NCBI GenBank assembly: GCA_040081735.1
Contig: JBEBFX010000001.1
Coordinates: 1 to 41,188 of the forward strand
DNA from: Alphaproteobacteria bacterium
GTDB lineage: Bacteria; Pseudomonadota; Alphaproteobacteria; UBA11222
DNA length: 41,188 bases
Direction of reading: 5' to 3'
In this document: piece after piece, positions 2,696 through 33,133 of the stretch
Layout of the letters: each line of letters starts with the position of its first letter
Numbering within the stretch: the first letter of the stretch is position 1
The notes under the pieces: model-generated
Told to the model about the DNA's origin: nothing
Database searches by the model: none
The model's input: the letters and a program-made list of their open reading frames with translations, nothing else
Program-made: the position numbers and the translations under genes

Positions 2696-2757
2696 ACTGT
2701 TGTGTCTCCCTGCCCGAGGCAGATTCGGGCCTTAAATAACGAATCCAGCATGTGCTT

Positions 2758-5076: not shown

Positions 5077-5097
5077 GGCCGGTCGATCTAATAATTT

Positions 5098-5244
5098 AGC
5101 AGGCTGCTGAAAAACCCTTCTTTTTGCCATCCTGAGCGGCCCGCTGCGCCAGCGCTTGCGCGTCGAGAGCGAAGGATCTCAGAGGTGCTGGAAACGCTGG
5201 AGATCCTTCAGTCGCTACGCGCCATCAGGATGACAATTCCGGGT
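5098..5244. repeat. Hairpin MITE-like element, copy 1 (right terminal repeat truncated)
   Basis: Aligns almost base for base with 38437-38601: caggctgctgaaaaaccc ... catcctgagcg ... cgaaggatctcagagg ... ggagatccttcagtcgctacgcgccatcaggatgacaattccgggt. It contains the internal inverted repeat gaaggatctc/gagatccttc. Confidence 0.75.
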
Positions 5245-7142: not shown

Positions 7143-7146
7143 AGAT

Positions 7147-8238
7147 CTATCCTTCGCGGTGCGCCAAAATGCTCGACGTGGCCAGCATAAATATCAGCAC
7201 GGGTCCCCCAACAGCCAGCACCGGCGGCATAACGCCTGATTCTCCTAATGACCGGAAGACCCCGCTGGCCAGCAGATAACCAAATCCCGCCGCAAGCGCC
7301 ACCGCCATATCCCGGGCCCGCGAGGGATACCGCGAAGTGCCAAGCGCCAGCGGCGCTGCCGCCAGCAGCATGATCATCGGCACAAACGGGGCGGCCAGCG
7401 CTTCATAAAAATTAGTCAGATAATAACCAGGGCTGTTGCCGCCTGCCCATATTTTTGCCTCCGGCAAGCCCGGCTGATGCAGACGGACACGGGCATTAAG
7501 AATTGTCGCCGAAAGAATGTCTACCGGCTCGGGGCCATCGGCCAGCGTTAAGGCGCCAGCCTGCGCCTTCGACGCTCCCTCGCGATTGATGGACCGGGCC
7601 GTCACCCCGTCAAACTGCCAGACGCCATCAATCAGGCGGCCCGTGCGGGCCGTTGCATGGCTTACGATCCGGCCGTCTGGCCCGCGCCGGATAAGGGTCA
7701 CATGCTGCATTCGCCGGCCTTCGTCCTCTGCGCGCTCGAACCCCATGATCATCGGTCCGGAACTGATCCAGTACGCGGCCTGCCCCGGCATGCCCGCCGC
7801 GCCGGTGTCAAGGTCCGCCTGTGCTGCCGGTTCTGGTTCGCGCAGCATTTCGTGCACCAGAATTTCCGTATAGGGCGCTGCAACGAAACGCACCCCAAAA
7901 TACACCAGACCGATGACCAGGGTAACCGGGGCCAGCCGCCCCACAATCCAGTAGATCGTCATACCCGAGCTGCGCATGGCGACAATCTCGTTATGCACGG
8001 CAAGATTTCCAAACGTAATCAGCGCGCCGATCAAAGTGGCGATTGGAACCACACTGGCGGCAATCGATGGCATGATCAGGGCGGCATAACTGCCCAGATC
8101 ACCCAGACGGCCGTCCCTCGCAATCACCGCATTCCCGTTGTCAAGCAGGTCCAGCAGTTCGGCCAGCGCGCCCAGCGCCAGCAGCGCCACCCCAACGCTC
8201 AGCGCAAAAATTCGCGTCAGATACAAGGCAAATGTCAT
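7147..8238 (-). CDS. lptG: LPS export ABC transporter permease LptG
   Basis: 363-aa YjgP/YjgQ-type permease: an N-terminal TM bundle, a periplasmic beta-rich insert and C-terminal TMs. It is the second gene of the pair and overlaps lptF by 4 nt. Confidence 0.75.
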   Translation of the reverse strand: MTFALYLTRIFALSVGVALLALGALAELLDLLDNGNAVIARDGRLGDLGSYAALIMPSIAASVVPIATLIGALITFGNLAVHNEIVAMRSSGMTIYWIVGRLAPVTLVIGLVYFGVRFVAAPYTEILVHEMLREPEPAAQADLDTGAAGMPGQAAYWISSGPMIMGFERAEDEGRRMQHVTLIRRGPDGRIVSHATARTGRLIDGVWQFDGVTARSINREGASKAQAGALTLADGPEPVDILSATILNARVRLHQPGLPEAKIWAGGNSPGYYLTNFYEALAAPFVPMIMLLAAAPLALGTSRYPSRARDMAVALAAGFGYLLASGVFRSLGESGVMPPVLAVGGPVLIFMLATSSILAHREG

Positions 8239-11443: not shown

Positions 11444-11746
11444 TTACTGCATGCGATTACCAATCGTTTTCAGCGCCAGTTCAAGAAATGGCCGCACGCC
11501 CCGTGGCCCCCGGATGGCTATATCCCTATCTGTGCTATTATATATGTCGTTCAATTCGGCGTCGGTGGAATTCCCCCCAAGAAGCGTGGCGAGAAAATCC
11601 CGCAAAACGCCATATTCCTTTTTTTGAACAAATCCCAACGCCCCATTGATCAGGTCCTGCGGCTCGGGGCCATAATCATCGAATGCATCCTGATGAAGGC
11701 CCTGACAAAATTTGTAAAATACTTCCGGGATGTTCATCTGGATCAC
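11444..11746 (-). CDS. Putative CdiI-type immunity protein
   Basis: 100-aa acidic protein. The FYKFCQGLHQDAFDDYG ... LRDFLATLLGGNSTDAELNDIY pattern resembles small contact-dependent-inhibition immunity proteins (from memory). Its GTG start overlaps the toxin TGA (GTGA at 11743-11746), and an alternative ATG lies at 11737. G+C is lower than in the cluster. Confidence 0.5.
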   Translation of the reverse strand: MIQMNIPEVFYKFCQGLHQDAFDDYGPEPQDLINGALGFVQKKEYGVLRDFLATLLGGNSTDAELNDIYNSTDRDIAIRGPRGVRPFLELALKTIGNRMQ

Positions 11747-12381
11747 CGTCCAATTCTTGGGTGATAGTTTCTTGGAAATGCGTTGCGGATACGATAGCCG
11801 GATACCATATGGGTGTCGCGAACAATAAATACGCCAACCTGATAGGTCTTACGTATTCTGATAAGGTCTATGTCTGGCGGGTCCACATAGGCTTCCTTGC
11901 CCGTAGGAAAACCAAACCTGTGTATCAAAAACTCCCCGGCGGATTGGCCGCTTGCCACGCGCGCCACCGCGTCAGGATTCATAACAATCGTGCGTTTGAT
12001 TAAATCCCGTGCATCTTCCTCGGACGCGAACGATCCGTTCCTGTCAATTCCTAAGCTGATAAAGTAGCTGCGATATTGTGATCGCTGGATACGCGCAATC
12101 AGCTCGGCTTCGCTCTTGCCAACGTGCCTGTTTATAATATGCTGGTTAAGATATCTGTCTTCGCCGGGGCGGTCATTATCCGCAACGGGGATAACTCCAT
12201 TATCCCCGTCCGTCCATTGCCCGCCATCCGGATGGCCCGCAGGCACGCGCGGCTGGCTGGGATTGAAGGCGGTTTCAAAAGCCAGTTGCAGCCGCAGCAT
12301 GGCAATATCCATGCGCAGCCCGGCATGCTCCCAGCGCAACCGCGACAGCGCCAGCTCTCTGTCTGAAATGCCCCTAGACAT
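11743..12381 (-). CDS. Putative polymorphic-toxin-type nuclease (RNase A-like CdiA-CT-type domain candidate) with a short helical N-terminus
   Basis: 212-aa ORF. It has an N-terminal helix, a PRVPAGHPDGGQWT linker, and then YLNQHIINRHVGKSEAELIARI. That H-x3-RHVGKS motif recalls RNase A-like toxin domains, from memory. The start ATG overlaps the SleB-type gene stop by 8 nt (ATGTCTAG). Confidence 0.5.
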   Translation of the reverse strand: MSRGISDRELALSRLRWEHAGLRMDIAMLRLQLAFETAFNPSQPRVPAGHPDGGQWTDGDNGVIPVADNDRPGEDRYLNQHIINRHVGKSEAELIARIQRSQYRSYFISLGIDRNGSFASEEDARDLIKRTIVMNPDAVARVASGQSAGEFLIHRFGFPTGKEAYVDPPDIDLIRIRKTYQVGVFIVRDTHMVSGYRIRNAFPRNYHPRIGR

Positions 12382-12826
12382 AAAACATATGCGCGCCGAT
12401 CAGCGCCGTGGGTTTCATGCTTTTCGCCCATACCGGTTCAATGTCATGATGATGATAATGCGTCGCCCCGGCGGCCGGGTCTTTGATCAACCCGCCCCAA
12501 ACCTGGCAGCCAATCGCGAAGGCGCGGCAATAGGCCGCATTCTCAAACCCGATCCGCATCAGTTTTGCCGCATTCGGATCGCCCGGGTTCCAGGCGGAAA
12601 ATTGCCGCGGCGCCCGGCACGCCCCCGCCAGCGTGCCGTCGCCGAATAGCGGATGCGCCCGCTTCTGGCGGGCAACAAACACCTGCGCCGCCGCCACCCG
12701 GTTGCGCATTACCCAGGCCACCGCCGCCTGGCCTTCTTCGCTTTCACCGCGCGCCTCGCCCCAGATGCTGCGCGCGAGCGTCTCCATATCAAACAGGCTG
12801 GCGTTGTTTATGATATGTTCTTTCAT
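12374..12826 (-). CDS. Cell-wall hydrolase, SleB/Hydrolase_2 family
   Basis: 150-aa ORF. LARSIWGEARGESEEGQAAVAWVMRNRV...ATHYH is the hallmark of SleB-type amidase/lytic enzymes. It overlaps the DUF2793 gene by 4 nt. Confidence 0.8.
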   Translation of the reverse strand: MKEHIINNASLFDMETLARSIWGEARGESEEGQAAVAWVMRNRVAAAQVFVARQKRAHPLFGDGTLAGACRAPRQFSAWNPGDPNAAKLMRIGFENAAYCRAFAIGCQVWGGLIKDPAAGATHYHHHDIEPVWAKSMKPTALIGAHMFYV

Positions 12827-13542
12827 GCTGAAGCCGCCAGGGTCAGATAATGAATGGCCACGCGGATCACGCCGCCGCTGAAATTACCCCCCGTTGCGCT
12901 GAACCGGATCGGCGTATTGGCGTAAAACGCTGTCGGCCCGGTGACGCCGATATTGCTGCCGCCGGCAGCTATTCCCAGTGTCCCGCCATATTTGGAAAGA
13001 TCGCCGACAATACCGCAATTATAGGATGTTGCCCCGGTAATGGCCGTCTGTACACGCACGGTTACCCCAAACACGATGGCCCGGTCGGGGATCTGAATTG
13101 CCGTGTCCGATGTGGCGGCCAGCGCCAGTGTGTGGCTTTCCTCCAGTATCCGGAACAGGGTGCGCGCCCCCAGCGGGGCTTTCGCCACATCGCTTTCGCG
13201 CGCCTTCAGGGTGTGCGTCCATGCGCCGCCGTCATAAAACACCGGCGCCGCTTCATCCGCGACCCACGCCTGCCAGCCATTGCGCGGTGTACGGAATATC
13301 CACGCCCCCGCCTGCCAGGCGGCAATCTTGCCTGCCTGCCCGGCCCATGCGCCGGTTGGGCTGCCCGCCACCAGATAACGATCCCCTTCAACGGGGCTAG
13401 CCGGCGGCGCGGCCAGATCGCGGTCCAGAACGCTAAGCTGCACCAGCGTATCCAGTCCGCTCAGCGCCTCGTTCACCGTCACATGCTTTTGCGATTGCGC
13501 CGCCTCCAGATAGGCCAGCGCCAGATTTGCCGAATTAGCCAT
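12823..13542 (-). CDS. DUF2793-family phage/GTA structural protein (fibre/spike-like)
   Basis: 239-aa ORF. The N-terminus LALAYLEAAQSQKHVTVNEALSGLDTLVQLSVLDRDLAAPP...GDRYLV is typical of DUF2793 proteins found after g15 in alphaproteobacterial GTA-like clusters. Confidence 0.7.
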   Translation of the reverse strand: MANSANLALAYLEAAQSQKHVTVNEALSGLDTLVQLSVLDRDLAAPPASPVEGDRYLVAGSPTGAWAGQAGKIAAWQAGAWIFRTPRNGWQAWVADEAAPVFYDGGAWTHTLKARESDVAKAPLGARTLFRILEESHTLALAATSDTAIQIPDRAIVFGVTVRVQTAITGATSYNCGIVGDLSKYGGTLGIAAGGSNIGVTGPTAFYANTPIRFSATGGNFSGGVIRVAIHYLTLAASA

Positions 13543-21733: not shown

Positions 21734-22054
21734 TTACCCGGCAACGCCTTCTTCGCAGCGGCATTCGAGCCACTGGCTGCGCTCATTCACGTTTTTCACG
21801 CTTCGGATATTCAGAATGCGCTGCTGCAACGCCAGCCGGTCGGCCGGCGTAATATCGCCGCGATAACGCATACGGATCAGGTAAGTCTGTGTGGCCTGCA
21901 TTTGCATGGCATGAACGGTTTCGCTGCCCGGCAACGGCGTTATCCTTGCCCACAGCTCAGCAATATCGATCCAGCTCAACGCGGCGCCGCCCCCCGCATC
22001 CGCTGTTTCCAGACGGCGTTGCAGGATGATTTTCCGGCGCATTCCCCCAATCAT
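21734..22054 (-). CDS. Head-tail adaptor / head-closure protein (GTA g7-like)
   Basis: 106-aa ORF with the SPP1 gp16-like pattern RRKIILQRR...WIDIAELWARITPLPGSE...YLIRMRYRGDITPADRL. Confidence 0.75.
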   Translation of the reverse strand: MIGGMRRKIILQRRLETADAGGGAALSWIDIAELWARITPLPGSETVHAMQMQATQTYLIRMRYRGDITPADRLALQQRILNIRSVKNVNERSQWLECRCEEGVAG

Positions 22055-22055: not shown

Positions 22056-22703
22056 TTACAACCTCATCATTCTGTAGGGCGCCAGCAGATTATGCACGCC
22101 GAGCGGTAAAACCTGCGCCCTGCTGTCTGCGCTCTGCAACACTTCGCGGTTTTCAAAATAATGCGCCGTCAGCATCAGCACCGCCTGGCGCAAGGGCGCA
22201 GGGACGTCTCCCTGTCCAACCCCATAGCCGCAGGTAAAATCAATCTGGAGCCCGTTGGCCGCCCTTTGCGGTTGCGGGGCCGAGGCAGTATTTCGCAACA
22301 CCAGCCTGCCGGGCGTACTTGCGGTATCGGCAAAATAATTGTCCGGTGACCACGCCACCCCCTGATCGGCATCATTGAACAGCGTCACTGAAACGACAGC
22401 CTGCAATGGCGCTTTGGGAATTTCAATGAACCGCGCGGCTCCCGCACGTACTGCGCCCTGACGCACCCCGTCCCACCAGGCGTCCCCGCCAGCGTACGTC
22501 CAGCTATCCATCATCCAGCGCCAGCCCTGACTGATCAGCGCCCTGCCGGTCCAGCTCTCCACCATCTGCCGGGCGGTGCGGATATGCCCAAGCATCAGGG
22601 CCAGCTCATCCTCGCTATCGATGCGCAGATGCGCCAGCGCTTCGGCCTCGCTTACCGGCTCAATCGCGGGCGCGCTCAGCAAACTCAACCGTTCACGGAT
22701 CAT
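22056..22703 (-). CDS. gp6-like head-tail connector protein (GTA g6-like)
   Basis: 215-aa ORF. The N-terminus VSEAEALAHLRIDSEDELALMLGHIRTARQMVESWTGRALISQ is the canonical connector motif. Confidence 0.75.
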   Translation of the reverse strand: MIRERLSLLSAPAIEPVSEAEALAHLRIDSEDELALMLGHIRTARQMVESWTGRALISQGWRWMMDSWTYAGGDAWWDGVRQGAVRAGAARFIEIPKAPLQAVVSVTLFNDADQGVAWSPDNYFADTASTPGRLVLRNTASAPQPQRAANGLQIDFTCGYGVGQGDVPAPLRQAVLMLTAHYFENREVLQSADSRAQVLPLGVHNLLAPYRMMRL

Positions 22704-22978
22704 TATCGTTGCTCCACTCTGACGGTGATGGAACGCTCGTCCGTGCGCCCCTGGGATGTCGTGATGCGGTTTGACATCTGGTAAATCTGCCCCGCAACGC
22801 CGCCGGTGACGGTGACGGTGGCGACGCTGGCCGTATTACCGGCGGCGCTCTGGGTCATATCGCCGGGGAAGATGGTCCAGATACTGCTCGAAAGGGTTTC
22901 ACCGCCCTGCAAATACCCCCCACCCCAGTCGATCGAATAATCCAGTACGGCGCCCGGGTCCTTGACATAAAATTGCAT
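22703..22978 (-). CDS. Small beta-rich phage structural protein (KDPxxxLDYxxDW-type)
   Basis: 91-aa ORF (MQFYVKDPGAVLDYSIDWGGGYLQGGETLSSSIW...). The motif recalls a small Ig-like phage family that some annotations call a fibre-tail adaptor (from memory). It has a TAATG overlap with g6. Confidence 0.4.
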   Translation of the reverse strand: MQFYVKDPGAVLDYSIDWGGGYLQGGETLSSSIWTIFPGDMTQSAAGNTASVATVTVTGGVAGQIYQMSNRITTSQGRTDERSITVRVEQR

Positions 22979-22988
22979 GAATTATCCT

Positions 22989-23381
22989 TTAGGTTGGGTC
23001 GGCGATTTCAACATCGAATGCGTTAACCGTCATGGTGTTGCCAGCCGTCACCGCCTGCGAGGCCGAAAGGCTTGTCACCGCCAGCAGAACGCTTGCCGTA
23101 TCATCCACCAGCGCCACATGATCGGCGGTTCCGCTGACATCCACCGTTATGCCGGTCTGCTGATTGACCGTCAGCTTGCGTCCCGAAACGTCGCCGTTTG
23201 CCGGGCCTGCAAAATTCGCCGATGTAATGGCGCGCTGGCCGCACCTTTTCCCTGTGGGCGAATTGGCATTTGCCTCTGCATAGGTCGCAGGCGCGCCAAT
23301 GCACACCACCAGTTTGTCCGCCGTGGTTTTGATCTGACCCAACGCCGCATCGAGCACGGCGTCATCCACTGTCTTTGTCAT
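22989..23381 (-). CDS. Hypothetical phage structural protein
   Basis: 130-aa ORF, packed 3-10 nt from its neighbours on the same strand. It has Ala/Thr/Val-rich beta-type composition. I recognise no family. Confidence 0.35.
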   Translation of the reverse strand: MTKTVDDAVLDAALGQIKTTADKLVVCIGAPATYAEANANSPTGKRCGQRAITSANFAGPANGDVSGRKLTVNQQTGITVDVSGTADHVALVDDTASVLLAVTSLSASQAVTAGNTMTVNAFDVEIADPT

Positions 23382-23384
23382 CGT

Positions 23385-24515
23385 TTACTCCGTGATTGTT
23401 TTGATTCTGTTTAATGCCGCAACCGATACGGAACGCCCGTCAACGGCTGGCTTGTTTCTGCGTGAATTACCGGCAATCACTGAAATTCTGAACCCCGGTG
23501 CGCCTGGTGCGCCTGCCCCCGGCGATGCGGAATCGAATCCAGACGCCATATGCATGTCCAGCGCCGGTAATAAATGCGCCTGGAAAAGCCCCGGGGTCTC
23601 AAAACCTTCGGCCAGAAATCCATCCATCGGGATCAGATTATGCGCCTGCGACATTGCGGACGGATCGAATGACAAACTATTCAATGTATCGGCAGGGGCA
23701 AGCACTGCATCGCCGCCCGGCGGCGTCCATACGCCGCGCCACTCAGCCATGGGCCGGAACATGCAGAACGGGTCAATGGCCAGCATCCGCATCTCGGCAT
23801 TGCTCAACGCCCGGTTCCAGGCGGCCGCAAAAACGATCGTGCAGGCGGTGTCAATGCGGAAAGTTGTCGTCTCGGGCCGCTGGCCTATGGCGAAACCCAG
23901 CGTTCCCGTTTTTATATCCTGAATCGTTCCGGACGCCGTGGCGCGCAGAACACCGTCAACAAAACCTTCCACATTGGCGCCTGCCCTGCGCCCGCCGAAC
24001 AGATGATATTTGCCGTCAATGGCCCCGGAAACCACCGCATTGGTGTTACTGTTTACGTTACGCGTGTTGAAGGAAAACATTCCCGAGGTGGCCGTGGCCA
24101 CTGACCCCGCCGCATTGTTAAACCCCAGCCACAGATTGGTGTTGTCCGCCACGTTGCCCTGAGCCAGCCCCCAGCTGATCCTGGATTCCGCAATCGGATT
24201 GGCCAGAATAATCATGGTCAGATCACCGGCGCCGGCCTCATCCGATGTTGAAATAAACTCGATATTGTCCTGAGAGAGAAGATTGGACGCTCCCGAAATA
24301 CCTGCGCCCGGCCCATAGGGCGTACCGCGCCATTGCAGGGTTGATCCCGCTGTCAGATTTGCCCCGGCAAGCGGCTGCCCCATGCTGTTCAGAAGCGCGC
24401 CATTACCCGCATTTCCCCATAGCGGCGCAAGGAATGCCAGCCCCTGCCACAGTCTGCGGGAACCGGGCGCAACAAGTGCAGGCGCAATATTCCAGCGTGG
24501 CGGTTTTTGTCGCAT
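23385..24515 (-). CDS. LamG/concanavalin-A-like lectin-fold protein with C-terminal short repeats (fibre/spike candidate)
   Basis: 376-aa ORF. The central region (LTMIILANP...WLGFNN...KYHLFGGRR...GFVDGVL...FAAAWNRALSNAEMRML) follows the Laminin_G_3 jelly-roll pattern. The C-terminus has three Fxxxx(Q)AHxL-like repeats. Confidence 0.5.
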   Translation of the reverse strand: MRQKPPRWNIAPALVAPGSRRLWQGLAFLAPLWGNAGNGALLNSMGQPLAGANLTAGSTLQWRGTPYGPGAGISGASNLLSQDNIEFISTSDEAGAGDLTMIILANPIAESRISWGLAQGNVADNTNLWLGFNNAAGSVATATSGMFSFNTRNVNSNTNAVVSGAIDGKYHLFGGRRAGANVEGFVDGVLRATASGTIQDIKTGTLGFAIGQRPETTTFRIDTACTIVFAAAWNRALSNAEMRMLAIDPFCMFRPMAEWRGVWTPPGGDAVLAPADTLNSLSFDPSAMSQAHNLIPMDGFLAEGFETPGLFQAHLLPALDMHMASGFDSASPGAGAPGAPGFRISVIAGNSRRNKPAVDGRSVSVAALNRIKTITE

Positions 24516-24530
24516 GGGGTGCGCGATCCG

Positions 24531-24911
24531 TCAGCGTTCAATGGCGGGCGTAAACGGCGCCAGGGTTTTTATCGCATTAATCAGCTCCCGGATGGTTTCA
24601 CCCCTCTGGACGCTCAGGGCTTCATTCATTTCGGCCTGGGTCATCTGCCCGGCAAAAGCCTTGGCGCCCTCGGCCTCGTACAGGAACTCAATGCCGTCCG
24701 GGGTTTTCCCGGAAAGTTTGACACGCTCGTTTTCCTTTCCCCCGCACAGTTTCGCATCGATCTGTCCGGTCTGCGCGTCATAGGCAAGCGACGCCTGATT
24801 TATTCCCGCACAGGACGGCGGGCTGGCGCGATACACCGTGCCGCAGGCTGCAAGTGAAACGGCGCCCCCCGCCGCAAAGGCCAATGCCAAAGCAGAATAT
24901 TTCATATTCAT
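24531..24911 (-). CDS. Small lipoprotein
   Basis: 126-aa ORF. The signal peptide carries a lipobox (MNMKYSALALAFAAGGAVSLAAC), and the mature part has three further Cys residues. It lies inside the structural operon. Confidence 0.5.
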   Translation of the reverse strand: MNMKYSALALAFAAGGAVSLAACGTVYRASPPSCAGINQASLAYDAQTGQIDAKLCGGKENERVKLSGKTPDGIEFLYEAEGAKAFAGQMTQAEMNEALSVQRGETIRELINAIKTLAPFTPAIER

Positions 24912-24935
24912 TTCCTTTCCAGCTTCTGTGAAGGG

Positions 24936-25307
24936 TTACGCGCTCACGCCATCCAGCATGTAGGCCCCGCCCATGGTGTAGGTGTTTGTGGCGCCCGTGC
25001 TCAGCCCGCCGATACGGAACTTGCGCACCCCCATCACCGTGAATGCGAAATATTCCGCATTGATGGTCGCGGGCTTGATGGTGAACTGCATGAATGCGAA
25101 CACGTCCCAGGTTTCGCTGGACGCATCCAGCGTTGTGTAAACCGACACCTGCAAACTGTCGGTGACAGCACTTGCGTGCTCGTTGTCAATCTTCAGCTGG
25201 ACATGACATAATTCGCGCGGGTTCAGCGTCACTGAGGCCAGAAATTCCTCTGCCGTATTGTTGATCGCCGTCTGATCGGTAAAGTTCTGTTTCGAGCCCC
25301 AGGCCAT
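24936..25307 (-). CDS. Hypothetical protein directly after the capsid gene (decoration-protein position)
   Basis: 123-aa ORF with a GAGGAG RBS 7 nt upstream and beta-rich composition. I recognise no family. Confidence 0.35.
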   Translation of the reverse strand: MAWGSKQNFTDQTAINNTAEEFLASVTLNPRELCHVQLKIDNEHASAVTDSLQVSVYTTLDASSETWDVFAFMQFTIKPATINAEYFAFTVMGVRKFRIGGLSTGATNTYTMGGAYMLDGVSA

Positions 25308-25330: not shown

Positions 25331-25360
25331 AAAAAAAAGGGTGAAATTTTCATTTCGCCC
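25331..25360 (-). terminator. Intrinsic terminator after the major capsid gene
   Basis: The minus strand reads GGGCGAAA-ugaaaa-UUUCACCC (8-bp stem, one C-A mismatch) followed by U8. It lies 22 nt after the capsid stop. Confidence 0.6.
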
Positions 25361-25381
25361 CAACTTTTTTAACTGGCGAAC

Positions 25382-26623
25382 TTACGAAACGCCGAATTTC
25401 AGCAATTTGATCGCCTCGAAATTCTGCACGCCGCCGCCCACGCGCTTGGTGGTGTAAAACAGCACATAGGGTTTGGCCGTGTACGGATCACGCAGCACAC
25501 GGATGCCCAGCCGGTCCACCACCAGATAGCCGCGCCTGAAATCGCCAAAGGCGATGCTGAAACTGTTGGCGGCCAGGCTTGGCATGTCTTCTGATTCCGT
25601 CACGGGATACCCAAGCAGCGTCGAGGGCTGCCCCGCCAGCAGGGACGGCTGCCACAGATACAACCCGTTGGCGTCCTTGAATTTGCGGATATCCGCCTGC
25701 ACATTGCGGTTCAGCACCCAGTTGGCGTTCGAGCGGTACCCCTGTTTCAGGGTGTAGATCAGATTGACCAGGGCATCGCTGGGATTGCTGGCCGCGAACG
25801 CCGCCGAAACCCCGGTCGCCAGATAGCCCATATTGCCCCACGTCCACGATGCGTTGGCCACATTGGTGTAGGCCAGAAAGCCCTTGGGCTTGTTCACCCC
25901 GTCACCGCTGACAAACGCCAGGCTTTCCTGTTCGGCGAAAATGATCTGCACTTCATCCGCCAGCCAGGCTTCCGTATCCACGGCGGCGTCATCCAGAATG
26001 GTCTGGGTCGCCGACGGCATGGCGTAGATCTCCATCGCCGGGAAACTCAGCTCCACCAGGGTGGGCGTTGTGGTCTGCGGACGCGCCGCCGTTTCACCCA
26101 CCCAGCCGGTGCTGGCGCTGACCGTGGCGAACGGCTTTTTGTAGACATTGCCGCTGATTTTCTGCACCCCGGCAATGGACCGGATGGGCGACGCCACCGA
26201 CAGCAGCCGCTCAATCTGGCGCTCGGTTTCGGCCGGCACCAGATAGCCGCCGTCGGCGCTTACGCCAACAGACAGCGCCTTGCTTTCCAGCTCATGCAGG
26301 CCGTGCTCGACGCCTTTGCGCATGTACAGATCAAAGCCCGCTTTGTGCTCGCGCCCATACATGCCGTGCTGCGCGCCCTCGGATGAAAAATCCGGACGCG
26401 CATGGGCCAGCGCCATTTCATCCATGCGCTGTTTGTGCTCATCCAGCGCCCGGTCATGGCGGTCGAGTTTTTCGCGGGTCAGCACGTCTGCGCCAAGCCG
26501 CGTATCCAGCTCCCGCAACCTTTGATCATTGGTGCTTTTATACGCCTCAAAGGTGCGCTGGAAACTGCCGAACTCGGCTTTCACTTCACGGGCGACGGGT
26601 ATCTCATGGCTGTTCTGGTTCAT
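25382..26623 (-). CDS. HK97-family major capsid protein (GTA g5-like)
   Basis: 413-aa ORF with an N-terminal delta-domain-like coiled region, then GGYLVPAE...FAEQESLAFVSGDGVNKPKGF...YTAKPYVLFYTTKRVGGG, which is typical of HK97-type capsids. Confidence 0.9.
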   Translation of the reverse strand: MNQNSHEIPVAREVKAEFGSFQRTFEAYKSTNDQRLRELDTRLGADVLTREKLDRHDRALDEHKQRMDEMALAHARPDFSSEGAQHGMYGREHKAGFDLYMRKGVEHGLHELESKALSVGVSADGGYLVPAETERQIERLLSVASPIRSIAGVQKISGNVYKKPFATVSASTGWVGETAARPQTTTPTLVELSFPAMEIYAMPSATQTILDDAAVDTEAWLADEVQIIFAEQESLAFVSGDGVNKPKGFLAYTNVANASWTWGNMGYLATGVSAAFAASNPSDALVNLIYTLKQGYRSNANWVLNRNVQADIRKFKDANGLYLWQPSLLAGQPSTLLGYPVTESEDMPSLAANSFSIAFGDFRRGYLVVDRLGIRVLRDPYTAKPYVLFYTTKRVGGGVQNFEAIKLLKFGVS

Positions 26624-26728: not shown

Positions 26729-27313
26729 CTAAATATCAGCTGACATTGCTCTGGCCGCCTGCCGGATGGCGAAGGCAAGTTCACGTAAGTCCTGATCCGA
26801 ATCCTGCGGGAAACTTTCCAAATCGCGCAGGCTATCCGCTTGTTTGACGCCAGCCACCCGCGCCGCGTCATTCATGGGAAAGGTCACGATCGAGATTTCC
26901 CACAAATCTATTTCAAGCAGTGTCCGCACGCCGGTTCGCTCATCCATCCGCGCCCGCACGGTTCTGAAGCCGATGGACAATCCATCAATCGCGCCTGCGC
27001 GCAACAGCGACAGCACCTCGCGGCCCCGCGCCACATCGCCCAACAGACGCCCGCGCACCAACAGGCCGCGCGCATCTTCTGCGATATGCTCCCACACCCC
27101 TATCGGCTCATTCGCATCATGCTGCCACAGCATGCGCACCTGATCCGCCGGCCGCGCCGCCAGCGAGTTTTTGAACGCCCCCGGCGCAACAACATCGCCG
27201 CCAGAATCCGCATTGCCAAAAACACTGGCGTAGCCTTCGATAACGCCATCCTCACCAACGGCGCGCACCTCCGCCCCGGCCAGCTTGACCTCCAGTTGAT
27301 CCTCTACGTGCAT
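26729..27313 (-). CDS. HK97-family prohead protease (GTA g4-like)
   Basis: IEGYASVFGNADSGGDVVAPGAFKNSL is the S78 protease motif. The start is chosen at ATG 27313, with GGGAG 5 nt upstream. The longer track ORF (to 27379) runs through the upstream terminator. Confidence 0.85.
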   Translation of the reverse strand: MHVEDQLEVKLAGAEVRAVGEDGVIEGYASVFGNADSGGDVVAPGAFKNSLAARPADQVRMLWQHDANEPIGVWEHIAEDARGLLVRGRLLGDVARGREVLSLLRAGAIDGLSIGFRTVRARMDERTGVRTLLEIDLWEISIVTFPMNDAARVAGVKQADSLRDLESFPQDSDQDLRELAFAIRQAARAMSADI

Positions 27314-27328
27314 GATAACTCCCGGCAT

Positions 27329-27354
27329 AAAAAAAGCGCCCCGGCTGGAGCGCT
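27329..27354 (-). terminator. Intrinsic terminator closing the inserted two-gene cassette
   Basis: The minus strand reads AGCGCUCC-agcc-GGGGCGCU followed by U7 (plus-strand A-run 27329-27335). It lies directly upstream of the protease RBS. Confidence 0.65.
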
Positions 27355-27435
27355 GTAAATTTTCTTCCCATTCCCTCATTGGGAAAGGGGATGCTTATTC
27401 CGCTTGGCTATATGGCCACCACGATGTTCACTACT

Positions 27436-27987
27436 TCACTTCCTTTGCCGTACTTTTTTTGCAGGCACTTTCTTTGCCTCGACCGGCGTTTCACCGGACT
27501 TGTTCCCCCGCGTAACCAGTATGGAAACGATACTGGCGGCGCCAGCCCCAACCAGCGACATACCCACAGCTGTCGCACCTATGTAAGCGCAATACGCCGC
27601 TCCTGCTATAAAGCCAAAGCTGACTAAGACGCCACTTAGCTGCCCAAAAACTTCACCGAAGGCGCTCCACCTTAAGACCCTGCTCTCAAGGCCTTGCCTG
27701 TGAACCTGCTCTTTTTCCGCCATACTAATGATGCGATTTGCAGAGCCAGAAAGAATTTCTTCATATCCCGCCAGGTGTGCGGGAGGTGGGATTGGTCCCT
27801 GGAACGACTCATACCGTTCCACAGTACGCGTAACAGTCATAACAATCTTATTCTTTGTGTCTTTATTGAGAGACGTTCCCCTAAGTAGAGGCTCAAGTTC
27901 TTCTTCGAGCGCCTCTTTTAGGCCATCCTCATCCGCGTGCTCATTTACTGAGACGGATCGTCCATCGGCGACGGTAGGGTCGCTCAT
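27436..27987 (-). CDS. DUF2335-family membrane protein
   Basis: 183-aa ORF. FQGPIPPPAHLAGYEEILSGSANRIISMAEKEQVHRQ matches the DUF2335 signature. Two C-terminal TM helices are followed by a strongly basic tail (KKVPAKKVRQRK). G+C is lower than in the cluster. Confidence 0.6.
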   Translation of the reverse strand: MSDPTVADGRSVSVNEHADEDGLKEALEEELEPLLRGTSLNKDTKNKIVMTVTRTVERYESFQGPIPPPAHLAGYEEILSGSANRIISMAEKEQVHRQGLESRVLRWSAFGEVFGQLSGVLVSFGFIAGAAYCAYIGATAVGMSLVGAGAASIVSILVTRGNKSGETPVEAKKVPAKKVRQRK

Positions 27988-28265
27988 TTCTTGAATGTAT
28001 GATCTTCAATTGCTGACCAAAGATCCCCGCCAACCTTCGCCCAATCTCCGGCCAGACCTTTACCCTTATAGGCTCGGGCGGATACCGGGGGCATTATTAC
28101 GTTGGCTTGTGCGCTCATCCCCTTCAAGAAACCCCTCTTCAGGCCAGACGTAATTGCGTCAACAACAATACGCCCATCCGAAGCGGTTCTTTTCGCAGTC
28201 TCGCGTTCAGACCGTCTAATACCGTCCTTTGTCAGTGTTTTCATAAAGATTCTCATATAATGCAA
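27984..28265 (-). CDS. Hypothetical small basic protein (first gene of the cassette)
   Basis: 93-aa ORF with a 4-nt overlap with the DUF2335 gene. Alternative ATGs lie at 28256 and 28244. I recognise no family. Confidence 0.35.
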   Translation of the reverse strand: MHYMRIFMKTLTKDGIRRSERETAKRTASDGRIVVDAITSGLKRGFLKGMSAQANVIMPPVSARAYKGKGLAGDWAKVGGDLWSAIEDHTFKK

Positions 28266-28548
28266 TGGGCGATATCGCTAGTTCACTTAATGAATATATA
28301 CCCATAAAGCCTACACTGCAAGACTCGGTTGCTTTTTTACGTCCCAATTTCTATCTAATTGTCAAGTATTTTTTTAAGAAGCTGTAAATTTCGTGGGTCA
28401 TTTGCTTTAAATTGTAGTGTTTCCTAACAAATTGTGGCGGCTCCTCCACCTTTTACAATTCATTTTTCACCACGGGTTTCAGGTATATAATTTCCAACTG
28501 TAAGACTTTACGTCATAAAGTTTCTTTAATTGATTATTTCGAGACACC
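28266..28548 (-). promoter_or_regulatory. AT-rich non-coding region, probably the promoter/operator of the cassette
   Basis: 283 bp with no ORF of 60 aa or more, and far more AT-rich than anything nearby. AATTGT/ACAATT occurs three times (about 28410, 28431, 28455). A TACAAT -10 candidate lies on the minus strand (28416-28411). Confidence 0.4.
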
Positions 28549-28815
28549 CTATCCCCCCTGCATCCGCTCCAGTGTCGCTTCGATGCGTGCCAGCGCCTCC
28601 AGCGTATGACGCAGCTTTTCCTCCTGGCGCACCAGCCGCTCCGACATTTCGGTCTGGAGGGTGGATGCGCTTTCCAGCCGCCGCACCCGCTCGCCCATGC
28701 CGCCCGCCCATATCAGCGCCGTGCCGATCTGCACGCCCAGCAGCACAAACAGCATGACCGGAATTTTGCGGTCGATCCCCCAGCCGGGTTTTTCCGCCCC
28801 GTCAATGGCGCTCAT
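28549..28815 (-). CDS. Small single-pass membrane protein with a coiled-coil tail (g3.5 position)
   Basis: The start is chosen at ATG 28815, with GGGAGG 6 nt upstream. The protein reads MSAIDGAEKPGWGIDRKIPVMLFVLLGVQIGTALIWAGG (TM), followed by a heptad-like RRLES...LEALARIEATLERMQ. Confidence 0.5.
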   Translation of the reverse strand: MSAIDGAEKPGWGIDRKIPVMLFVLLGVQIGTALIWAGGMGERVRRLESASTLQTEMSERLVRQEEKLRHTLEALARIEATLERMQGG

Positions 28816-28834
28816 CCGTAAACCTCCCATTCGT

Positions 28835-30061
28835 TTATGTTTTGTTCTTTAAATCAGCAAGCCGGTCACCCTCTGCGACCGGCGCATATCCCGTAGCGGC
28901 GCGCTTTTCATTGATCGTCAGAAAATCCGCCGCGCGCACCCGCTCCCATAATGAATCCCGGTCCGCCGCCAGCGCCTCCACCTGATCCGCGTCATACCAG
29001 AGCCGCAGCCCCGGCCCAAAGCGCGGCCCCAGCCACTGGGTCATCGCTGCGCACGCCTTGCCCGCCAGCGGCAAAATGGTCTGCCGGTGAAACGCAAGAT
29101 TGGCTTCCCGGTAATTGGCGTAGGTATTGTCGCCCTGTATGCCCAGCAGCATCGGCGGCACCCCGAACGCCAGCGCGATCTCGCGCGCCGCCACATGTTT
29201 GGACTGAATGAAATCCATATCCTTCGGATTGAACGACATTTCCTTCCAGTCCAGCCCGCCTTCCAGCAGCAGCGGGCGTCCTGCATTGGCCGGTCCCTGA
29301 TAATTGTCCGACAATTCCTGCTTGAGACGCGACAGCTGATCCTGGCTTAAATTTGCACTGCCATCCGCGCCATGATAAATCAGCGCGCCCGAGGGCCGCG
29401 CGCCATTATCCAGCAGCGCCTTGTTCCATCCCGCCGCGGCGTTATGAAGATCAATGCCCAGCGCCGCCGCCTCGATGGGCGAGAATCCGTAATGATCGTT
29501 ACTCGGGTGAAACAGACGCATATGCAGAATGGGCGCGCGCCCGCGCGCGGCGTCCATCTCGAAGCGCACACTTTTACCGCCTGTGGAATATTCATAGGCG
29601 GCCGGCCATCCACGCGCGCCCGGTATCACTTTCATCCGGTCCGGACGCAGCACATATAATTCGCGCACCGCCCCGCGCAGATCGGCGGCCTCAATATAGG
29701 CGTTGCCTGCAATCTGCAAAAACCCGAACCAGGCTTCTTTCATCTCGATGCCGCTCTGCAACGGGTTTGGCCGCGCCAGCAGGCTCAACAGCGGATGCGT
29801 GTCCAGCTCCCGCTCGCGCCCGCCCGTGTTTTCATACAATATCCACGGCACGGCGGCGGCGGTTTCACTGATCATCCGTACACAACGATAAGCGATGGCG
29901 TTGCGCGCAAAACCCTCCTGCGCCAGATCGCCATAGTGGCGCGGCGTCCATACCGGCGTCCCCTGGCCATGAAGGGCGATCAGGGAACCGGCGGCGCTTT
30001 GCTTGGCCGCCATTGGCGGGCGAAAACCAAACCGGCGCAGAATGCTGAATGTGTCTCTCAC
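28835..30061 (-). CDS. HK97-family portal protein (GTA g3-like)
   Basis: 408-aa ORF with the typical pattern YRCVRMISETAAAVPW...GNAYIEA...FSPIEAA...IALAFGVPPMLLG. Confidence 0.9.
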   Translation of the reverse strand: MRDTFSILRRFGFRPPMAAKQSAAGSLIALHGQGTPVWTPRHYGDLAQEGFARNAIAYRCVRMISETAAAVPWILYENTGGRERELDTHPLLSLLARPNPLQSGIEMKEAWFGFLQIAGNAYIEAADLRGAVRELYVLRPDRMKVIPGARGWPAAYEYSTGGKSVRFEMDAARGRAPILHMRLFHPSNDHYGFSPIEAAALGIDLHNAAAGWNKALLDNGARPSGALIYHGADGSANLSQDQLSRLKQELSDNYQGPANAGRPLLLEGGLDWKEMSFNPKDMDFIQSKHVAAREIALAFGVPPMLLGIQGDNTYANYREANLAFHRQTILPLAGKACAAMTQWLGPRFGPGLRLWYDADQVEALAADRDSLWERVRAADFLTINEKRAATGYAPVAEGDRLADLKNKT

Positions 30062-30080: not shown

Positions 30081-31418
30081 TCATAGCCGCAGCACGCGCG
30101 GCTCTCCCGCTTCGCCGGTCAGCATCAATTCCGTCAGCGCCCATACCAGCGCATCGACCCGGTCCGGGCTCCACCCCGCAGCGGCGCGGTTGAATCCCCG
30201 GGTAAATTCCGCCATTTCATCCTCCAGCGCCGGTAATGCGCCGACATGATGCACCCGGCCCTGTTCATACAAGGCGGACACAGGCTCAGCCCGCGCCGCC
30301 TTGCCCCGGCTGGCGCGCACGGACCGCACCGGTAAATTTGGATCAACCTGTCTGATCACCGATTCCACCATGTCGCCGCCCTGGTTGACTTCCGCCACCA
30401 GCCTGTCGGCCTGGAAATCGCGATAGGCGGCCACGGCCCTGCTGGCCCAGACATGGGGCGACACGCCCTGGACCGAATAGTCAGCCAGCACGTAGCCTGC
30501 GCCATCCACCCCAAGCCCCGCCACAATAATCCCGCACGCATCACTATTGGCCGTGCTGGCCGCAGGGGGATCAACGGCCACCACAATGCGCCTCATTTCG
30601 GCGGCGGTTTTCACCCTGCATCTGTCGATCTGCGCCCGGCTCCACAATGCGTCTGGATTATCTTCCAGCAGTTCGGCCAGCAATTCCTGGCGTCCCAGCC
30701 GCGTGCCTTCGTACTGCGCCGTTATGCGATCAAAAAACTGCGGCGCCAGATTTGCGGCGTTGGCGTAACTGGTTGCCCGCGACACCACTGTATGTGCATC
30801 CGCCAGCAGATCGCGCAGCAGGCGTTGCGGACGTGGCGTCGTCGTAATCACCTGGCGCGGATCGGCCCCCAGCCGCAGGCCGAATTGCAGCATGTCCCAG
30901 GTTTCACGGCTGTGCCGCCATTTCGTCAATTCATCCGCCCACGCCCCATCGAACTGCGGACCGCGCAGTCCATCGGGATCTTCGGCGGAAAATAACTGCG
31001 CCTGCGCCCCGTTGGGCCAGATCAGGCGGCGTTTGGACGCTTCATATTTTGGCCGCGCCCAGGCGGGCGAAATGGCCAGAATGCCGCTCTCTCCCTCCAC
31101 CATCACATCGCGCGCGCTGCCGATGGTTTCACCGATCAGCGCGATACGTGACCGCTGTCCACGGCCCAGCGGCGTCTTGCCTGCGACGGATGCGCGCACC
31201 CATTCGGCCCCGGCGCGGGTTTTGCCCGCACCCCGTCCGCCCAGCAATAGCCAGCTTACCCATTTACCATCGGGCGCCAGTTGATCCTCGCGCGCCCAGA
31301 AAGGCCATAACCAGAGAAGCTGCCTGCGCAATCCGGGCGCAAGACCGGCAATAATTTCATCCCTCCGGCGTTGCGGCAGCGAGGCGAGCCAGACGGCGTT
31401 GAACTTCATCCCAGCCAT
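30081..31418 (-). CDS. Terminase large subunit (GTA g2-like)
   Basis: 445-aa ORF with Walker A LLGGRGAGKTRAGAEW, a DE-type Walker B (ADELTKW) and a C-terminal nuclease-like region (VAVDPP...DACGIIVAG). Confidence 0.9.
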   Translation of the reverse strand: MAGMKFNAVWLASLPQRRRDEIIAGLAPGLRRQLLWLWPFWAREDQLAPDGKWVSWLLLGGRGAGKTRAGAEWVRASVAGKTPLGRGQRSRIALIGETIGSARDVMVEGESGILAISPAWARPKYEASKRRLIWPNGAQAQLFSAEDPDGLRGPQFDGAWADELTKWRHSRETWDMLQFGLRLGADPRQVITTTPRPQRLLRDLLADAHTVVSRATSYANAANLAPQFFDRITAQYEGTRLGRQELLAELLEDNPDALWSRAQIDRCRVKTAAEMRRIVVAVDPPAASTANSDACGIIVAGLGVDGAGYVLADYSVQGVSPHVWASRAVAAYRDFQADRLVAEVNQGGDMVESVIRQVDPNLPVRSVRASRGKAARAEPVSALYEQGRVHHVGALPALEDEMAEFTRGFNRAAAGWSPDRVDALVWALTELMLTGEAGEPRVLRL

Positions 31419-31905
31419 CCAGCGCCCCCAAATTATTCTCTGCCATTATGGCGTCCGCTTCAATGACGCTGCCGGGATGGGCGCCGGCTTCACGCTCCAG
31501 CACAATCAGCTTCTCCAGCGCCCGCGCCAGAGATGTCAGAATGTCCGCCGCGCCCTTTTTTTCCGTGGCGCTCATAACTCCCTCATTGGGATGATCCAGA
31601 TGCAGTTCCAGCTCATCCGCCAGCCGGTTGACGATGTTCATCATGCGCGCCAGCGCCCGGGCCGCGTTGACGTCACCCCCGGCCATCGCAAATTTCAGAC
31701 GCCTGTTTTTGATGCTCGGGCGGCGCGCCGGTTTGCCGGGTTTTACAGTATCGCTGGTGCCGGGCCGCGCCCAGCAGCAGCGATTGGCTTTGGCATAAAT
31801 GCTCACCGGCGCCAGCCCATGCTTGCGGGCAATTTCCGGCACCGGCATGGCGCCCGCATGATAGTCCCGCGAAACGGCCTCCCAATCAATCTGACGCTTC
31901 GTCAT
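31357..31905 (-). CDS. HTH protein in the small-terminase (g1) position
   Basis: The start is chosen at ATG 31905, with AGGGAG upstream. MTKRQIDWEAVSRDYHAGAMPVPEIARKHGLAPVSIYAKANRCCW looks like an N-terminal HTH. The gene overlaps terL by ~60 nt. Confidence 0.45.
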   Translation of the reverse strand: MTKRQIDWEAVSRDYHAGAMPVPEIARKHGLAPVSIYAKANRCCWARPGTSDTVKPGKPARRPSIKNRRLKFAMAGGDVNAARALARMMNIVNRLADELELHLDHPNEGVMSATEKKGAADILTSLARALEKLIVLEREAGAHPGSVIEADAIMAENNLGALDGWDEVQRRLARLAAATPEG

Positions 31906-32034
31906 CGTCGCTCCCTGAAAAAATATGGTTACGCACAAGCCACAAAAAAAAGCGTCTCACTTGCGCGGGCGCTTTTCATCGTGTTGCGTGACGTTAGTTC
32001 GTTTTTTGATCAGGTTGAATCGCCTCACCCACTG

Positions 32035-32281: not shown

Positions 32282-33133
32282 TTACGTATTATGTAAATTA
32301 TTTTCATCTGAAACGTGCACGGTTCGCGGCGAGTGCACCCCGGGCCTGTTTTTTGGCGCGTCCTTCCGGGCAATGCCATAATACGCTGCCAGCCGGTCCA
32401 GAGCGATCCCCAGAACCACCTTGCCCGCCCGCACGGGCCAGCCCAGATGCCGCTCGGCCGCCGCCAGTCCATTCAAATAACAGCATACCTGCAACAATAT
32501 GCCGCCCAGATCGGGGCCGACGGCGTCAATCGCGGCCCATAGCCGGTCCTTGGCGGCGATCATCGTATCGTTCATGCTGGCCTGATCGCTGCCCGCCCCC
32601 CGCCCTGCGCGATTGATTGGCATGCCCCATGACGCGGTTACTCTCGGGGCCAGGTTGGCAAGGGTAAAGTCTCGCCGCAGGCGTTCCCCGGCGGCAAACT
32701 GTTCAATAGTAATCAATGGTTTGCCATGTTTATCTTTATGGCTGACCAGCCATCCCAACGGGCTTTCCGCATGATTGACGCGCACCACAACTGCTTCACC
32801 TTTTTCTGTGCGCTGTTCCTTAAGGTCAAGTATCTGATGCTGGCTGCGATAGGGGGAATCTGGCGCCTGCCTGCGCCGCAGACGCGCGCGCCCCAGCCGG
32901 GAAATACGCCACTCACCAGGTGTCTTGTCCGATGCCAGAATCAGTTCCTCAGTCATCAGCTGGCGAACGGCCTTCTCGCCCGCAACCAGCACAGGCCTGG
33001 CAAATCTGTTCCTGGGGACAAAAACCCCCATCCCGCCCCCGTCCGTCAAGCGGCCAACTGCCTGAAATTCGCCAAGGTGAAACAGAACAGCCTCGACTTC
33101 AGACGTTTTCTCTTTTTTATCGGTGATTTTCAT
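32282..33133 (-). CDS. DUF6456-type protein, candidate GafZ/GafA-C-terminal-like GTA activator
   Basis: 283-aa ORF. ESPLGWLVSHKDKHGKPLITIEQFAAGERLRRDFTLANLAPRVTASW ... DRLWAAIDAVGPDLGGILLQVCCYLNGLAAAERHLGWPVRAGKVVLGIALDRLAAYYGI matches my memory of the alphaproteobacterial DUF6456 pattern. A GAGGT RBS is present. Confidence 0.55.
   Translation of the reverse strand: MKITDKKEKTSEVEAVLFHLGEFQAVGRLTDGGGMGVFVPRNRFARPVLVAGEKAVRQLMTEELILASDKTPGEWRISRLGRARLRRRQAPDSPYRSQHQILDLKEQRTEKGEAVVVRVNHAESPLGWLVSHKDKHGKPLITIEQFAAGERLRRDFTLANLAPRVTASWGMPINRAGRGAGSDQASMNDTMIAAKDRLWAAIDAVGPDLGGILLQVCCYLNGLAAAERHLGWPVRAGKVVLGIALDRLAAYYGIARKDAPKNRPGVHSPRTVHVSDENNLHNT

Follow-up and report, generated by a model that had tools for sequence, protein, structure and literature searches.

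In the Ralstonia podophage GP4, fifteen copies of gp77, an immunoglobulin (Ig)-like protein of 93 amino acids (aa), encircle the 12-mer head-tail adaptor and hold three sets of fibres (PMC11445570). The complex of gp77, a rope and the fibre I protein gp80 has been solved (PDB 8JOU; Zheng et al., 2023, J Mol Biol 435:168258, as cited in PMC11445570 and PMC13730344). In the myophage Bas63, the whisker proteins consist of an N-terminal helix and an incomplete sandwich, and their dimers are threaded "like beads on a string" by a rope domain that completes the sandwiches; this rope extends from an Ig-like collar at the interface of adaptor and head-completion proteins, and the authors point out a homology with the fibre I complex of GP4, in which a protein of its own serves as the rope (PMC12609058). 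The collar-whisker of the myophage Sf14 has been described similarly (PDB 9C39; PMC11821841), and the bead fold recurs in the chain-like fibres of A1002 and VP1 (PMC13730344). The collar-rope-bead design is already known from GP4 (2023), Sf14 and Bas63 (2025), chain-like fibres from VP1 and A1002, and two Pfam families cover parts of it. We analysed a stretch of 41,188 nucleotides of an alphaproteobacterial genome assembly (GCA_040081735.1, contig JBEBFX010000001.1, positions 1 to 41,188; hereafter the window), which carries a predicted gene transfer agent (GTA) cluster of the type found in Rhodobacter capsulatus (RcGTA). Between its major capsid gene and its gp6-type head-tail adaptor gene lie five small genes, here called A to E (Table 1). 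It is likely that C, D, E and probably A encode a collar-rope-whisker fibre cassette at the neck of the particle, accompanied by a lipoprotein, B, confined to this clade.

The locus resembles that of GP4 in several respects: E belongs to the Pfam family of gp77 (PF23148); D is a small bead protein candidate (130 aa as compared to 140 aa) with a related fold (template modelling, TM, score of 0.55) and a weak full-length match to PF23140; the putative rope is a separate protein; and the genes for collar, bead and rope are clustered. It differs in its carrier, a long-tailed GTA instead of a podophage, and in its rope, which would have a LamG-like head and about three units, whereas GP4 strings five dimers. 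Furthermore, there are no genes for fibres II or III here, and there are two additional ones, for a jelly-roll protein (A) and a lipoprotein (B). With Bas63 (PDB 9MT4) and Sf14 the locus shares the bead fold, since these gave the best structural matches of D, as well as the collar gene beside the adaptor gene, in keeping with their Ig-like collar on the adaptor and their threaded dimers. However, D is only 18-22% identical to the solved whisker proteins, with no match at the sequence level. In Bas63 the collar protein itself is extended at its N-terminus into the rope, on which two dimers are carried, whereas rope and collar would here be encoded by separate genes. The putative rope protein of the window bears a lectin-like head. 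The Bas63 whiskers are proposed mainly as braces of the head-tail joint. Fibres from a symmetry-mismatched neck ring, with many copies of small beads and a distal carbohydrate-binding module, are also present in the Anabaena myophage A-1(L) (gp5 pentadecamer, gp82/gp81/gp80; PMC10966104), but its beads are trimers of unrelated proteins, and the authors' assay showed no binding of the distal module to the host.

What is new here is the long-tailed GTA carrier, the separate putative rope protein fused to a LamG head, the constant jelly-roll partner A and the added lipoprotein B. A full-text literature search returned no paper in which collars, whiskers or LamG fibres are connected with GTAs. To our knowledge, the choice of recipients by GTAs is known only for Rhodobacter capsulatus. 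The head spikes and tail fibres of RcGTA reportedly bind surface polysaccharide and raise the transfer frequency. As accessory GTA adhesins they would be functional analogues of the proposed LamG whisker, but they are encoded outside the main cluster, occupy other places on the particle and belong to unrelated protein families. If our reading is true, the main GTA cluster would contain a built-in adhesin module of a design unlike that of RcGTA, and the collar-rope-whisker architecture would extend from one podophage and two myophages to long-tailed domesticated particles.

Putative collar, bead and rope genes

The earlier note on this DNA, which was made from the sequence letters and a list of open reading frames, had described five tightly packed, co-directional frames between capsid and connector genes, and their coordinates and sizes (123, 126, 376, 130 and 91 aa) were exactly as it had given. 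The intergenic gaps from A to E are of 24, 15, 3 and 10 nucleotides, and the stop codon of E overlaps the ATG of gp6 by 1 base. The same five genes were found in the same order in eight related metagenome-assembled genome loci. The median pairwise ratios of nonsynonymous to synonymous substitution rates (dN/dS), which are rough because dS is near saturation, were 0.10 for A, 0.27 for B, 0.26 for C, 0.07 for D and 0.14 for E, as compared to 0.13 for the capsid protein and 0.20 for gp6. Given the conserved order and these low ratios, A to E are by comparative criteria real genes under purifying selection and not chance reading frames.

Protein E matched the Pfam family PF23148 (Gp77, "podophage GP4 fiber-tail adaptor gp77") over profile positions 1-84 of 84, with 91.9 bits against a cut-off of 27 and an E-value of 3.7e-26. 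A phmmer search against the PDB sequences matched it to the solved GP4 chain 8jou_D (9.7e-5); the profile A6 was uninformative against the PDB, since its alignment already contained gp77. The motif KDPxxxLDYxxDW of this protein had been attributed in the earlier note to a small Ig-like phage family, which the PF23148 match bears out. We regard E as very likely a protein of the collar family.

Few genomes of the class have a gene of the Gp77 type (10 of 401). An E-like gene directly precedes gp6 in two other alphaproteobacterial families (loci L047 and L049). Among 80 viral contigs with E-like genes, a D-like gene was directly upstream in 14 and a GTA-type gp6 lay within 1 kb downstream in about 19. 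The 72 immediate downstream neighbours of E-like genes included 5 head completion, 4 gp6-like, 1 SU10 adaptor, 7 portal and 5 MuF/minor capsid genes, so that neck (adaptor/head-completion) and portal genes, with 10 and 7 of 72 respectively, were the commonest identifiable neighbours on this side. In L049 (positions 2247-6098, genome G155), the same slot holds genes for proteins of 148 aa, 563 aa (with about 17 repeats of the type SLDAAVQAxxT), 184 aa and 99 aa, followed by the Gp77-like gene directly before gp6.

The adaptor gp6 itself contains an insertion of 17 residues (WWDGVRxGA...; Table 1). All the E-bearing clusters examined, from three families, have it, whereas the sister genus and several further families lack it. 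As a docking loop specific to the collar it was discarded, because in a wider sample five clusters without E also carry it. The association runs one way, and the insertion may be a general docking loop for neck add-ons or a mere marker of a gp6 subfamily; it is a weak lead.

Protein D gave a single family match, to PF23140 (Gp80, "GP4 fiber I gp80"), which spans its full length but reached only 18.8 bits (E-value 0.0021), below the 27-bit cut-off. A profile of nine D orthologues retrieved 1390 representative clusters of proteins of about 125-135 aa. When 57 members of this family were sampled, seven matched PF23140 (E < 0.01, best 4.9e-7), and none matched another phage family. D is best treated, on these profile matches, as belonging to a sister family of PF23140. 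BLASTP of D against GP4 gp80 gave nothing significant, and hhalign of the D family against a single 140-aa protein of locus L017 was weak or empty.

The AlphaFold2 model of D has a mean predicted local distance difference test score (pLDDT) of 97.4 and shows a helix at residues 7-20 followed by nine strands in a beta-sandwich. In a Foldseek search of the PDB with this model, the top matches were 9c39_K (neck of Sf14) and 9mt4_K/L/M (connector of Bas63), with Foldseek probability 1.0, target-normalised TM scores of 0.73-0.76 and root-mean-square deviations of 2.9-3.6; the TM score was 0.55 against GP4 fibre I (8jou_a). D is also the most conserved gene of the block (88-95% identity), with a dN/dS below that of the capsid protein. 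The modelled fold indicates that D is very probably a bead of the whisker type. The bead family is large, and nearly all of its 1390 representative clusters are unannotated.

Protein C comprises a head, a row of tandem units and a tail (Table 1). The first part, residues 1-257, is shared by about 50 homologues, with a mean identity of 55% within the genus. The earlier note had recognised a LamG/concanavalin-type pattern in this 376-aa protein, and the family is consistent with it: PF13385 (LamG-type) matched 12 of 20 sampled members (E < 1e-3, best 6.4e-8) and also a relative in locus L015 (5.7e-17). The protein of the window itself gave 20 bits (8e-4), under the cut-off of 27.6. After the conserved motif EWRGVWTP come tandem units of 22 residues (xxDxxxxxxFETPxxSQxHxL). 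The three short C-terminal repeats reported earlier are two full units and one degenerate unit, at residues 272-339. Searched for tandem repeats at the DNA level, this region gave only a 9-bp duplication, and the units are repeats at the protein level only. The earlier note had also suggested comparing the variability of the C-terminus among relatives. In this comparison the number of units did vary, from 2 to 6 in eight orthologues, but the terminal tail was conserved across the orthologues despite this variation.

Other members of the C family keep the LamG head and have quite different and more numerous repeats. The same holds for the distant cassettes L015, L017 and L049, and L030 also has another type of unit. 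The podophage-like locus L031 has units of the SQxH type together with a D homologue (3e-50 with a hidden Markov model), whereas L030 and L032, with other unit types, have no protein of the D family; L032 has a PF23140 protein instead. These combinations support the view that rope type and bead type co-vary. Since L031 shares both the D homologue and the SQxH-type units with the window, the bead-rope pair appears to move between this phage lineage and the GTA clade. The L031 genes (4674-7467, on a contig with an SU10-type capsid gene) are those of a close relative of D and of a LamG protein that contains six SQxH/TQNH units of 22 aa, and neither A nor a Gp77-like gene is nearby.

A relative of C in locus L016 (7393-9648) is 751 aa long and has two LamG-type modules, each behind a "KPxRWN..." leader; a repeat-rich 502-aa protein and small proteins are encoded after it. 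The architecture of this relative points to duplication of LamG tips as modules. When genome contigs were scanned, a single C sequence as query found nothing, and the relatives were found with an alignment as query; a tblastn search of the phage collection with C gave no match. The short tandem units, in variable number and encoded beside a bead gene and a collar gene, make C look like a rope, and we consider this assignment reasonably probable. C has a dN/dS of 0.26 and identities of 55% and 44%, as compared to the strongly constrained D, A and E (0.07-0.14); such fast evolution is expected for a part in contact with the host.

Jelly-roll protein A and predicted lipoprotein B

Protein A has 94 homologues, all of about 120 aa, and gave no match in Pfam, PHROGs or NCBIfam. 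In five unrelated contexts (L015, L016, L017, L030 and L032), comprising one siphophage tail end, two podophage-like contigs and two GTA-like tail ends, an A homologue is encoded immediately upstream of a LamG/repeat protein. Because its homologues accompany LamG-rope genes in these contexts and not capsid genes, A is, judging from gene linkage, part of the fibre cassette and not of the capsid. It is probably a distal fibre component or an assembly factor. The AlphaFold2 model of A is a seven-stranded jelly roll (pLDDT 89.7), and its structural matches were generic only (a lambda gpJ domain, carbohydrate-binding modules, Ena pilins). A second bead type or a decoration protein was considered as a role for A and set aside, the model being a generic jelly roll without a specific relative.

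The linkage of A bears on the possibility that the block encodes capsid decoration or head-fibre proteins bound to the capsid shell, which was one of the options of the earlier note. The block does follow the capsid gene directly, A is a small beta-sandwich of a size typical of decoration proteins, and both GP4 fibre I and the up-facing whiskers of Bas63 touch the capsid. Nevertheless, none of A to E matched a decoration-protein family in Pfam or PHROGs, A travels with LamG-rope genes in tail and podophage contexts, D and E resemble the neck proteins of GP4, Sf14 and Bas63, and E is translationally coupled to the adaptor gene. A shell-bound role is therefore very unlikely, and this option of the earlier note was not upheld.

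Protein B begins with MNMKYSALALAFAAGGAVSLAAC, a signal peptide with the lipobox L-A-A-C at residues 20-23, of which Cys23 is encoded at 24843-24845 on the minus strand. The lipobox of the 126-aa product, also pointed out by the earlier note, has its counterpart in the orthologues: Cys23, Cys34 and Cys56 are invariant in six of them, with an atypical residue at position -3 in two of the six. B is therefore predicted to be a bacterial lipoprotein, i.e. a substrate of signal peptidase II. Only 25 homologues were found, all from this clade and at least 54% identical, and there was no match in Pfam, NCBIfam, PHROGs or PADLOC, including none to a known exclusion protein of the Llp/Cor type. Outside the clade the homologues of A and C are directly adjacent, which suggests that B was inserted between them. 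The idea that B is a classical moron did not hold, because the gene lacks both a promoter and a terminator of its own and was retained in each of the orthologous blocks. B evolves as fast as C (dN/dS of 0.27 vs. 0.26). A co-evolution of B with the LamG head was looked for and rejected (Spearman 0.21, no signal); B tracks gp6 and D, that is, the phylogeny.

As an exported protein, B is unlikely to be a component of the particle. This raises a further alternative, in which the block, or at least A and B, would be non-structural cargo (for defence, exclusion or lysis-related functions) and the whisker likeness of D and E that of a decayed, non-assembling remnant. The gap between capsid and adaptor genes is indeed variable across the class, B is exported and of no known family, and a terminator-like hairpin lies ahead of the block. 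On the other hand, all five genes are intact in at least nine genomes, D is more constrained than the capsid protein, and the tight coupling to gp6 argues for co-expression with structural genes. Considering both sides, we find the cargo explanation very improbable.

The earlier note had proposed B as a candidate superinfection-exclusion factor of the Llp/Cor type. T5 Llp and phi80/T1 Cor are exclusion lipoproteins that mask receptors, FhuA in the case of Llp. B resembles them as a small exported lipoprotein in which cysteines are conserved, and its gene is beside that of a presumed receptor-binding protein; it differs in lacking any sequence or profile similarity to these proteins and in being co-transcribed within a late structural operon. 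By analogy, B might mask the fibre ligand on the envelopes of producer cells, as Llp does for FhuA; this is the best guess at its role, though an unlikely one. GTA clusters are expressed only in a lysing subpopulation. Masking by B would therefore shield the released particles from debris while sibling cells stay receptive. A broader scenario, in which the choice of recipients is set by fast-evolving, lectin-tipped neck whiskers while B masks their ligand on the envelopes of the lysing producers, an Llp-like trick in domesticated gene exchange, is a long shot.

Proposed assembly and position on the particle

That C, D, E and probably A form a collar-rope-whisker cassette is suggested by the family to which E belongs, by the fold of D and the repeats that make up C, and by the way in which the genes are linked, confined to one clade and constrained by selection. 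From these we infer all the protein-protein contacts, the assembly geometry, the neck location, the sugar ligand and the roles of A and B that are set out below. E would encircle the gp6 adaptor as a ring where head and tail join, and C would be anchored to this ring by its conserved C-terminal tail. The 22-residue units of C would act as the rope on which D dimers are strung as beads, each rope segment completing the open beta-sandwich of one bead. The LamG-like head would then stand at the free end and make the first, reversible contact with the surface polysaccharide of a recipient. A would be a further distal component of the fibre or an assembly factor, and B would be exported and made in producer cells only. 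This orientation of C agrees with that of Bas63, where the rope is N-terminal to the collar domain. The selection pattern also fits, considering that the putative beads and collar are highly constrained and the tip and rope evolve fast and vary in length.

A role of the LamG tip in adsorption is possible, though somewhat less likely than not. We are more cautious on this point because the tip of the A-1(L) neck fibre did not bind and because the Bas63 authors also consider a bracing role.

The neck location has to be weighed against a fibre mounted on the tail, at the end of the tube or on the baseplate, built from the same proteins; the genes would then be a side tail fibre cassette that happens to adjoin the adaptor gene. 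This would accord with L015, L017, L030 and L032, where the A, LamG-rope and Gp77-like genes follow tape-measure and distal-tail genes, near lysis genes, and with genome G187, in which the Gp77-like gene is about 14 kb downstream of gp6. Moreover, the collar of the podophage GP4 is in effect part of its tail. Yet in all three solved cases the collar is on the adaptor or neck, E overlaps gp6 by a base, E-like genes directly precede gp6 in two further families, and neck and portal genes are their commonest identifiable downstream neighbours. Tail mounting is, in our judgement, improbable.

Several points weigh against a collar-rope-whisker cassette at the neck. D scores under the gathering threshold of PF23140, the hhalign comparison of the D family with GP4 gp80 alone was weak (E = 0.018), and the D-family profile found no match among PDB sequences, so that the link to whisker proteins comes from the fold search only. 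The window's own C scores below the Pfam cut-off for LamG, no sequence similarity was detected between C and any GP4 protein, and BLASTP of C against GP4 gp79 gave nothing significant. The rope sequence of GP4 was not identified, and gp79 found no match among PDB sequences. The contacts between rope and bead and between collar and adaptor are extrapolated from three solved phages, which share only the fold with D, at 18-22% identity. The tip of the cyanophage A-1(L) neck fibre did not bind host cells (PMC10966104). The same cassette is found at the end of the tail gene block in several phages, and gene position alone does not prove a neck location. The hairpin behind the capsid gene could reduce expression of the block. 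Finally, the particles of this uncultured bacterium have never been seen.

The GP4 protein gp79 (L002, 10948-11925; 325 aa, encoded between gp80 and gp78) contains short G-rich tandem units (..GxGxIxLxGxG..); it may be the GP4 rope, which would then have been built into the structure with no sequence assigned to it.

With regard to the wider use of the neck cassette reading, collar, bead and rope behave as a cassette whose parts can be swapped, the tips of the rope and the number of its units being exchangeable. For annotators, the reading offers labels for these small reading frames, and the LamG tip becomes a candidate for what determines the host range of the GTA.

The gene cluster and the capsid-adaptor gap

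The coordinates of the cluster and of the features discussed above are collected in Table 1. The synteny from terminase to g15 is as in GTAs of the RcGTA type, and the cluster is single-copy and syntenic across the genomes of the genus. Its flanks are cellular, with a glutamine synthetase gene at one end and LptF/LptG at the other, and the window contains neither an integrase gene nor genes for replication. Because of the RcGTA gene order, the cellular flanks, the GafZ-like gene and the lack of integrase and replication genes, we treat the element as a GTA cluster of the RcGTA type, its production of particles being predicted from the genes.

Table 1. Features of the GTA cluster in the window, in order of transcription, with sub-features listed under their genes
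Feature	Position	Strand	Remark
DUF6456 (GafZ-like) gene	32282-33133		upstream of the terminase genes
Small terminase-like gene	31357-31938	-	start of the RcGTA-type cluster
Large terminase gene	30081-31418	-	
Portal gene	28835-30061	-	
Prohead protease gene	26729-27379	-	
Major capsid gene	25382-26623	-	PF05065, 6e-89
Hairpin with a run of eight U (U8)	25331-25361	- (coding strand)	directly after the capsid gene; sequence reading and RNA fold
Gene A, 123 aa	24936-25307	-	
Gene B, 126 aa	24531-24911	-	
Gene C, 376 aa	23385-24515	-	
C residues 1-257, LamG/concanavalin-like head with conserved N-terminal segment	23745-24515	-	proposed distal sugar-binding whisker tip
C residues 272-339, three tandem 22-aa units (xxDxxxxxxFE/DxPxxSQAHxL), third degenerate	23499-23702	-	proposed rope threading D beads
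C residues 340-376, conserved tail (PGFR...RSKSITE)	23388-23498	-	candidate collar anchor, by inference only
Gene D, 130 aa	22989-23381	-	
Gene E, 91 aa	22703-22978	-	
gp6-type head-tail adaptor gene	22056-22703	-	PF05135, phrog_442, TIGR02215 (4.8e-44)
17-aa insertion in gp6 (residues 74-90), DAWWDGVRQGAVRAGAA	22434-22484	-	
Head completion protein gene	21734-22054	-	PF05521
Tail terminator-like gene, major tail protein, chaperones, short tape measure, g12-g15	down to 13535	-	rest of the cluster

The earlier note had placed an intrinsic terminator after the capsid gene. A hairpin followed by U8 is indeed found there on the coding strand, but its stability is moderate: the stem has 9 pairs, including one C/A mismatch and one G-U pair, with a minimum free energy of -17 kcal/mol (z = -2.0), and a consensus terminator scanner scored it on the plus strand only. 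An A-run upstream of the hairpin gives it a bidirectional look. A terminator of moderate strength is plausible from these features. In the Caulobacter GTA, GafZ is an anti-terminator that lets RNA polymerase pass terminators inside the cluster (PMC11150451). Considering this and the GafZ-like gene of the window, a terminator ahead of the block is compatible with expression of A to E, and read-through into them is plausible by analogy.

Of the nine genomes of the window's genus, eight have a single copy of D, as does one neighbouring genus; the third (sister) genus of the family has none, and nor has any of the 48 other families that were sampled in the class. The sister genus and two further families have a capsid gene (60-68% identical) with gp6 directly behind it. 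A comparison of presence and absence, which the earlier note had proposed, thus places the block in the window's genus and its neighbour and not in the sister genus. From this distribution we conclude that the block is an insertion into the capsid-adaptor slot in an ancestor of one genus-level clade, where it was fixed and kept by purifying selection. The possibility, raised in the earlier note, that the five proteins are standard, conserved head-completion proteins was checked by homology searches: the genes are conserved in the genus, but they do not encode head-completion proteins.

The earlier note had alternatively proposed a fibre cassette captured from another phage, and here the comparisons agreed with it, as the pair of A and LamG-rope genes, the D-like beads and the Gp77-like collars turn up again in tail contexts of the siphophage, podophage-like and GTA-like kinds and are absent as a block from the sister genus. 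The block looks like a mobile fibre module shared with phages. The related statement that RcGTA-type clusters pass from the capsid straight to the connector gene was correct for the nearest outgroup, the sister genus, and for several other families, but the gap is filled in many alphaproteobacterial clusters. In 20 further clusters it ranged from nothing to 2.9 kb, the occupied gaps holding 0.3-2.9 kb of other genes, and the capsid-adaptor gap can be seen as a cargo slot in alphaproteobacterial GTAs.

Within the gaps of loci L051-L070 and L049, a protein of about 125-150 aa, starting with M(T)TRDL and having the motif VGYxGxxRYxR, is encoded in 10 of about 20 clusters; hhalign indicated that this "MTTRDL" slot protein of about 130 aa is unrelated to A. 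In clusters G216 and G037 the gap is filled by genes for a protein of about 88 aa and one of 690-830 aa. Elsewhere in the window, three small genes lie between portal and protease (27436-28830), in a region of lower G+C (0.51-0.55), one of which encodes a DUF2335 membrane protein (2.2e-15). Downstream of g15 (11743-13542) are genes for a DUF2793 protein, a cell-wall hydrolase (PF07486) and a protein with a CdiA-CT RNase A-like toxin domain (PF18431, 5e-11).

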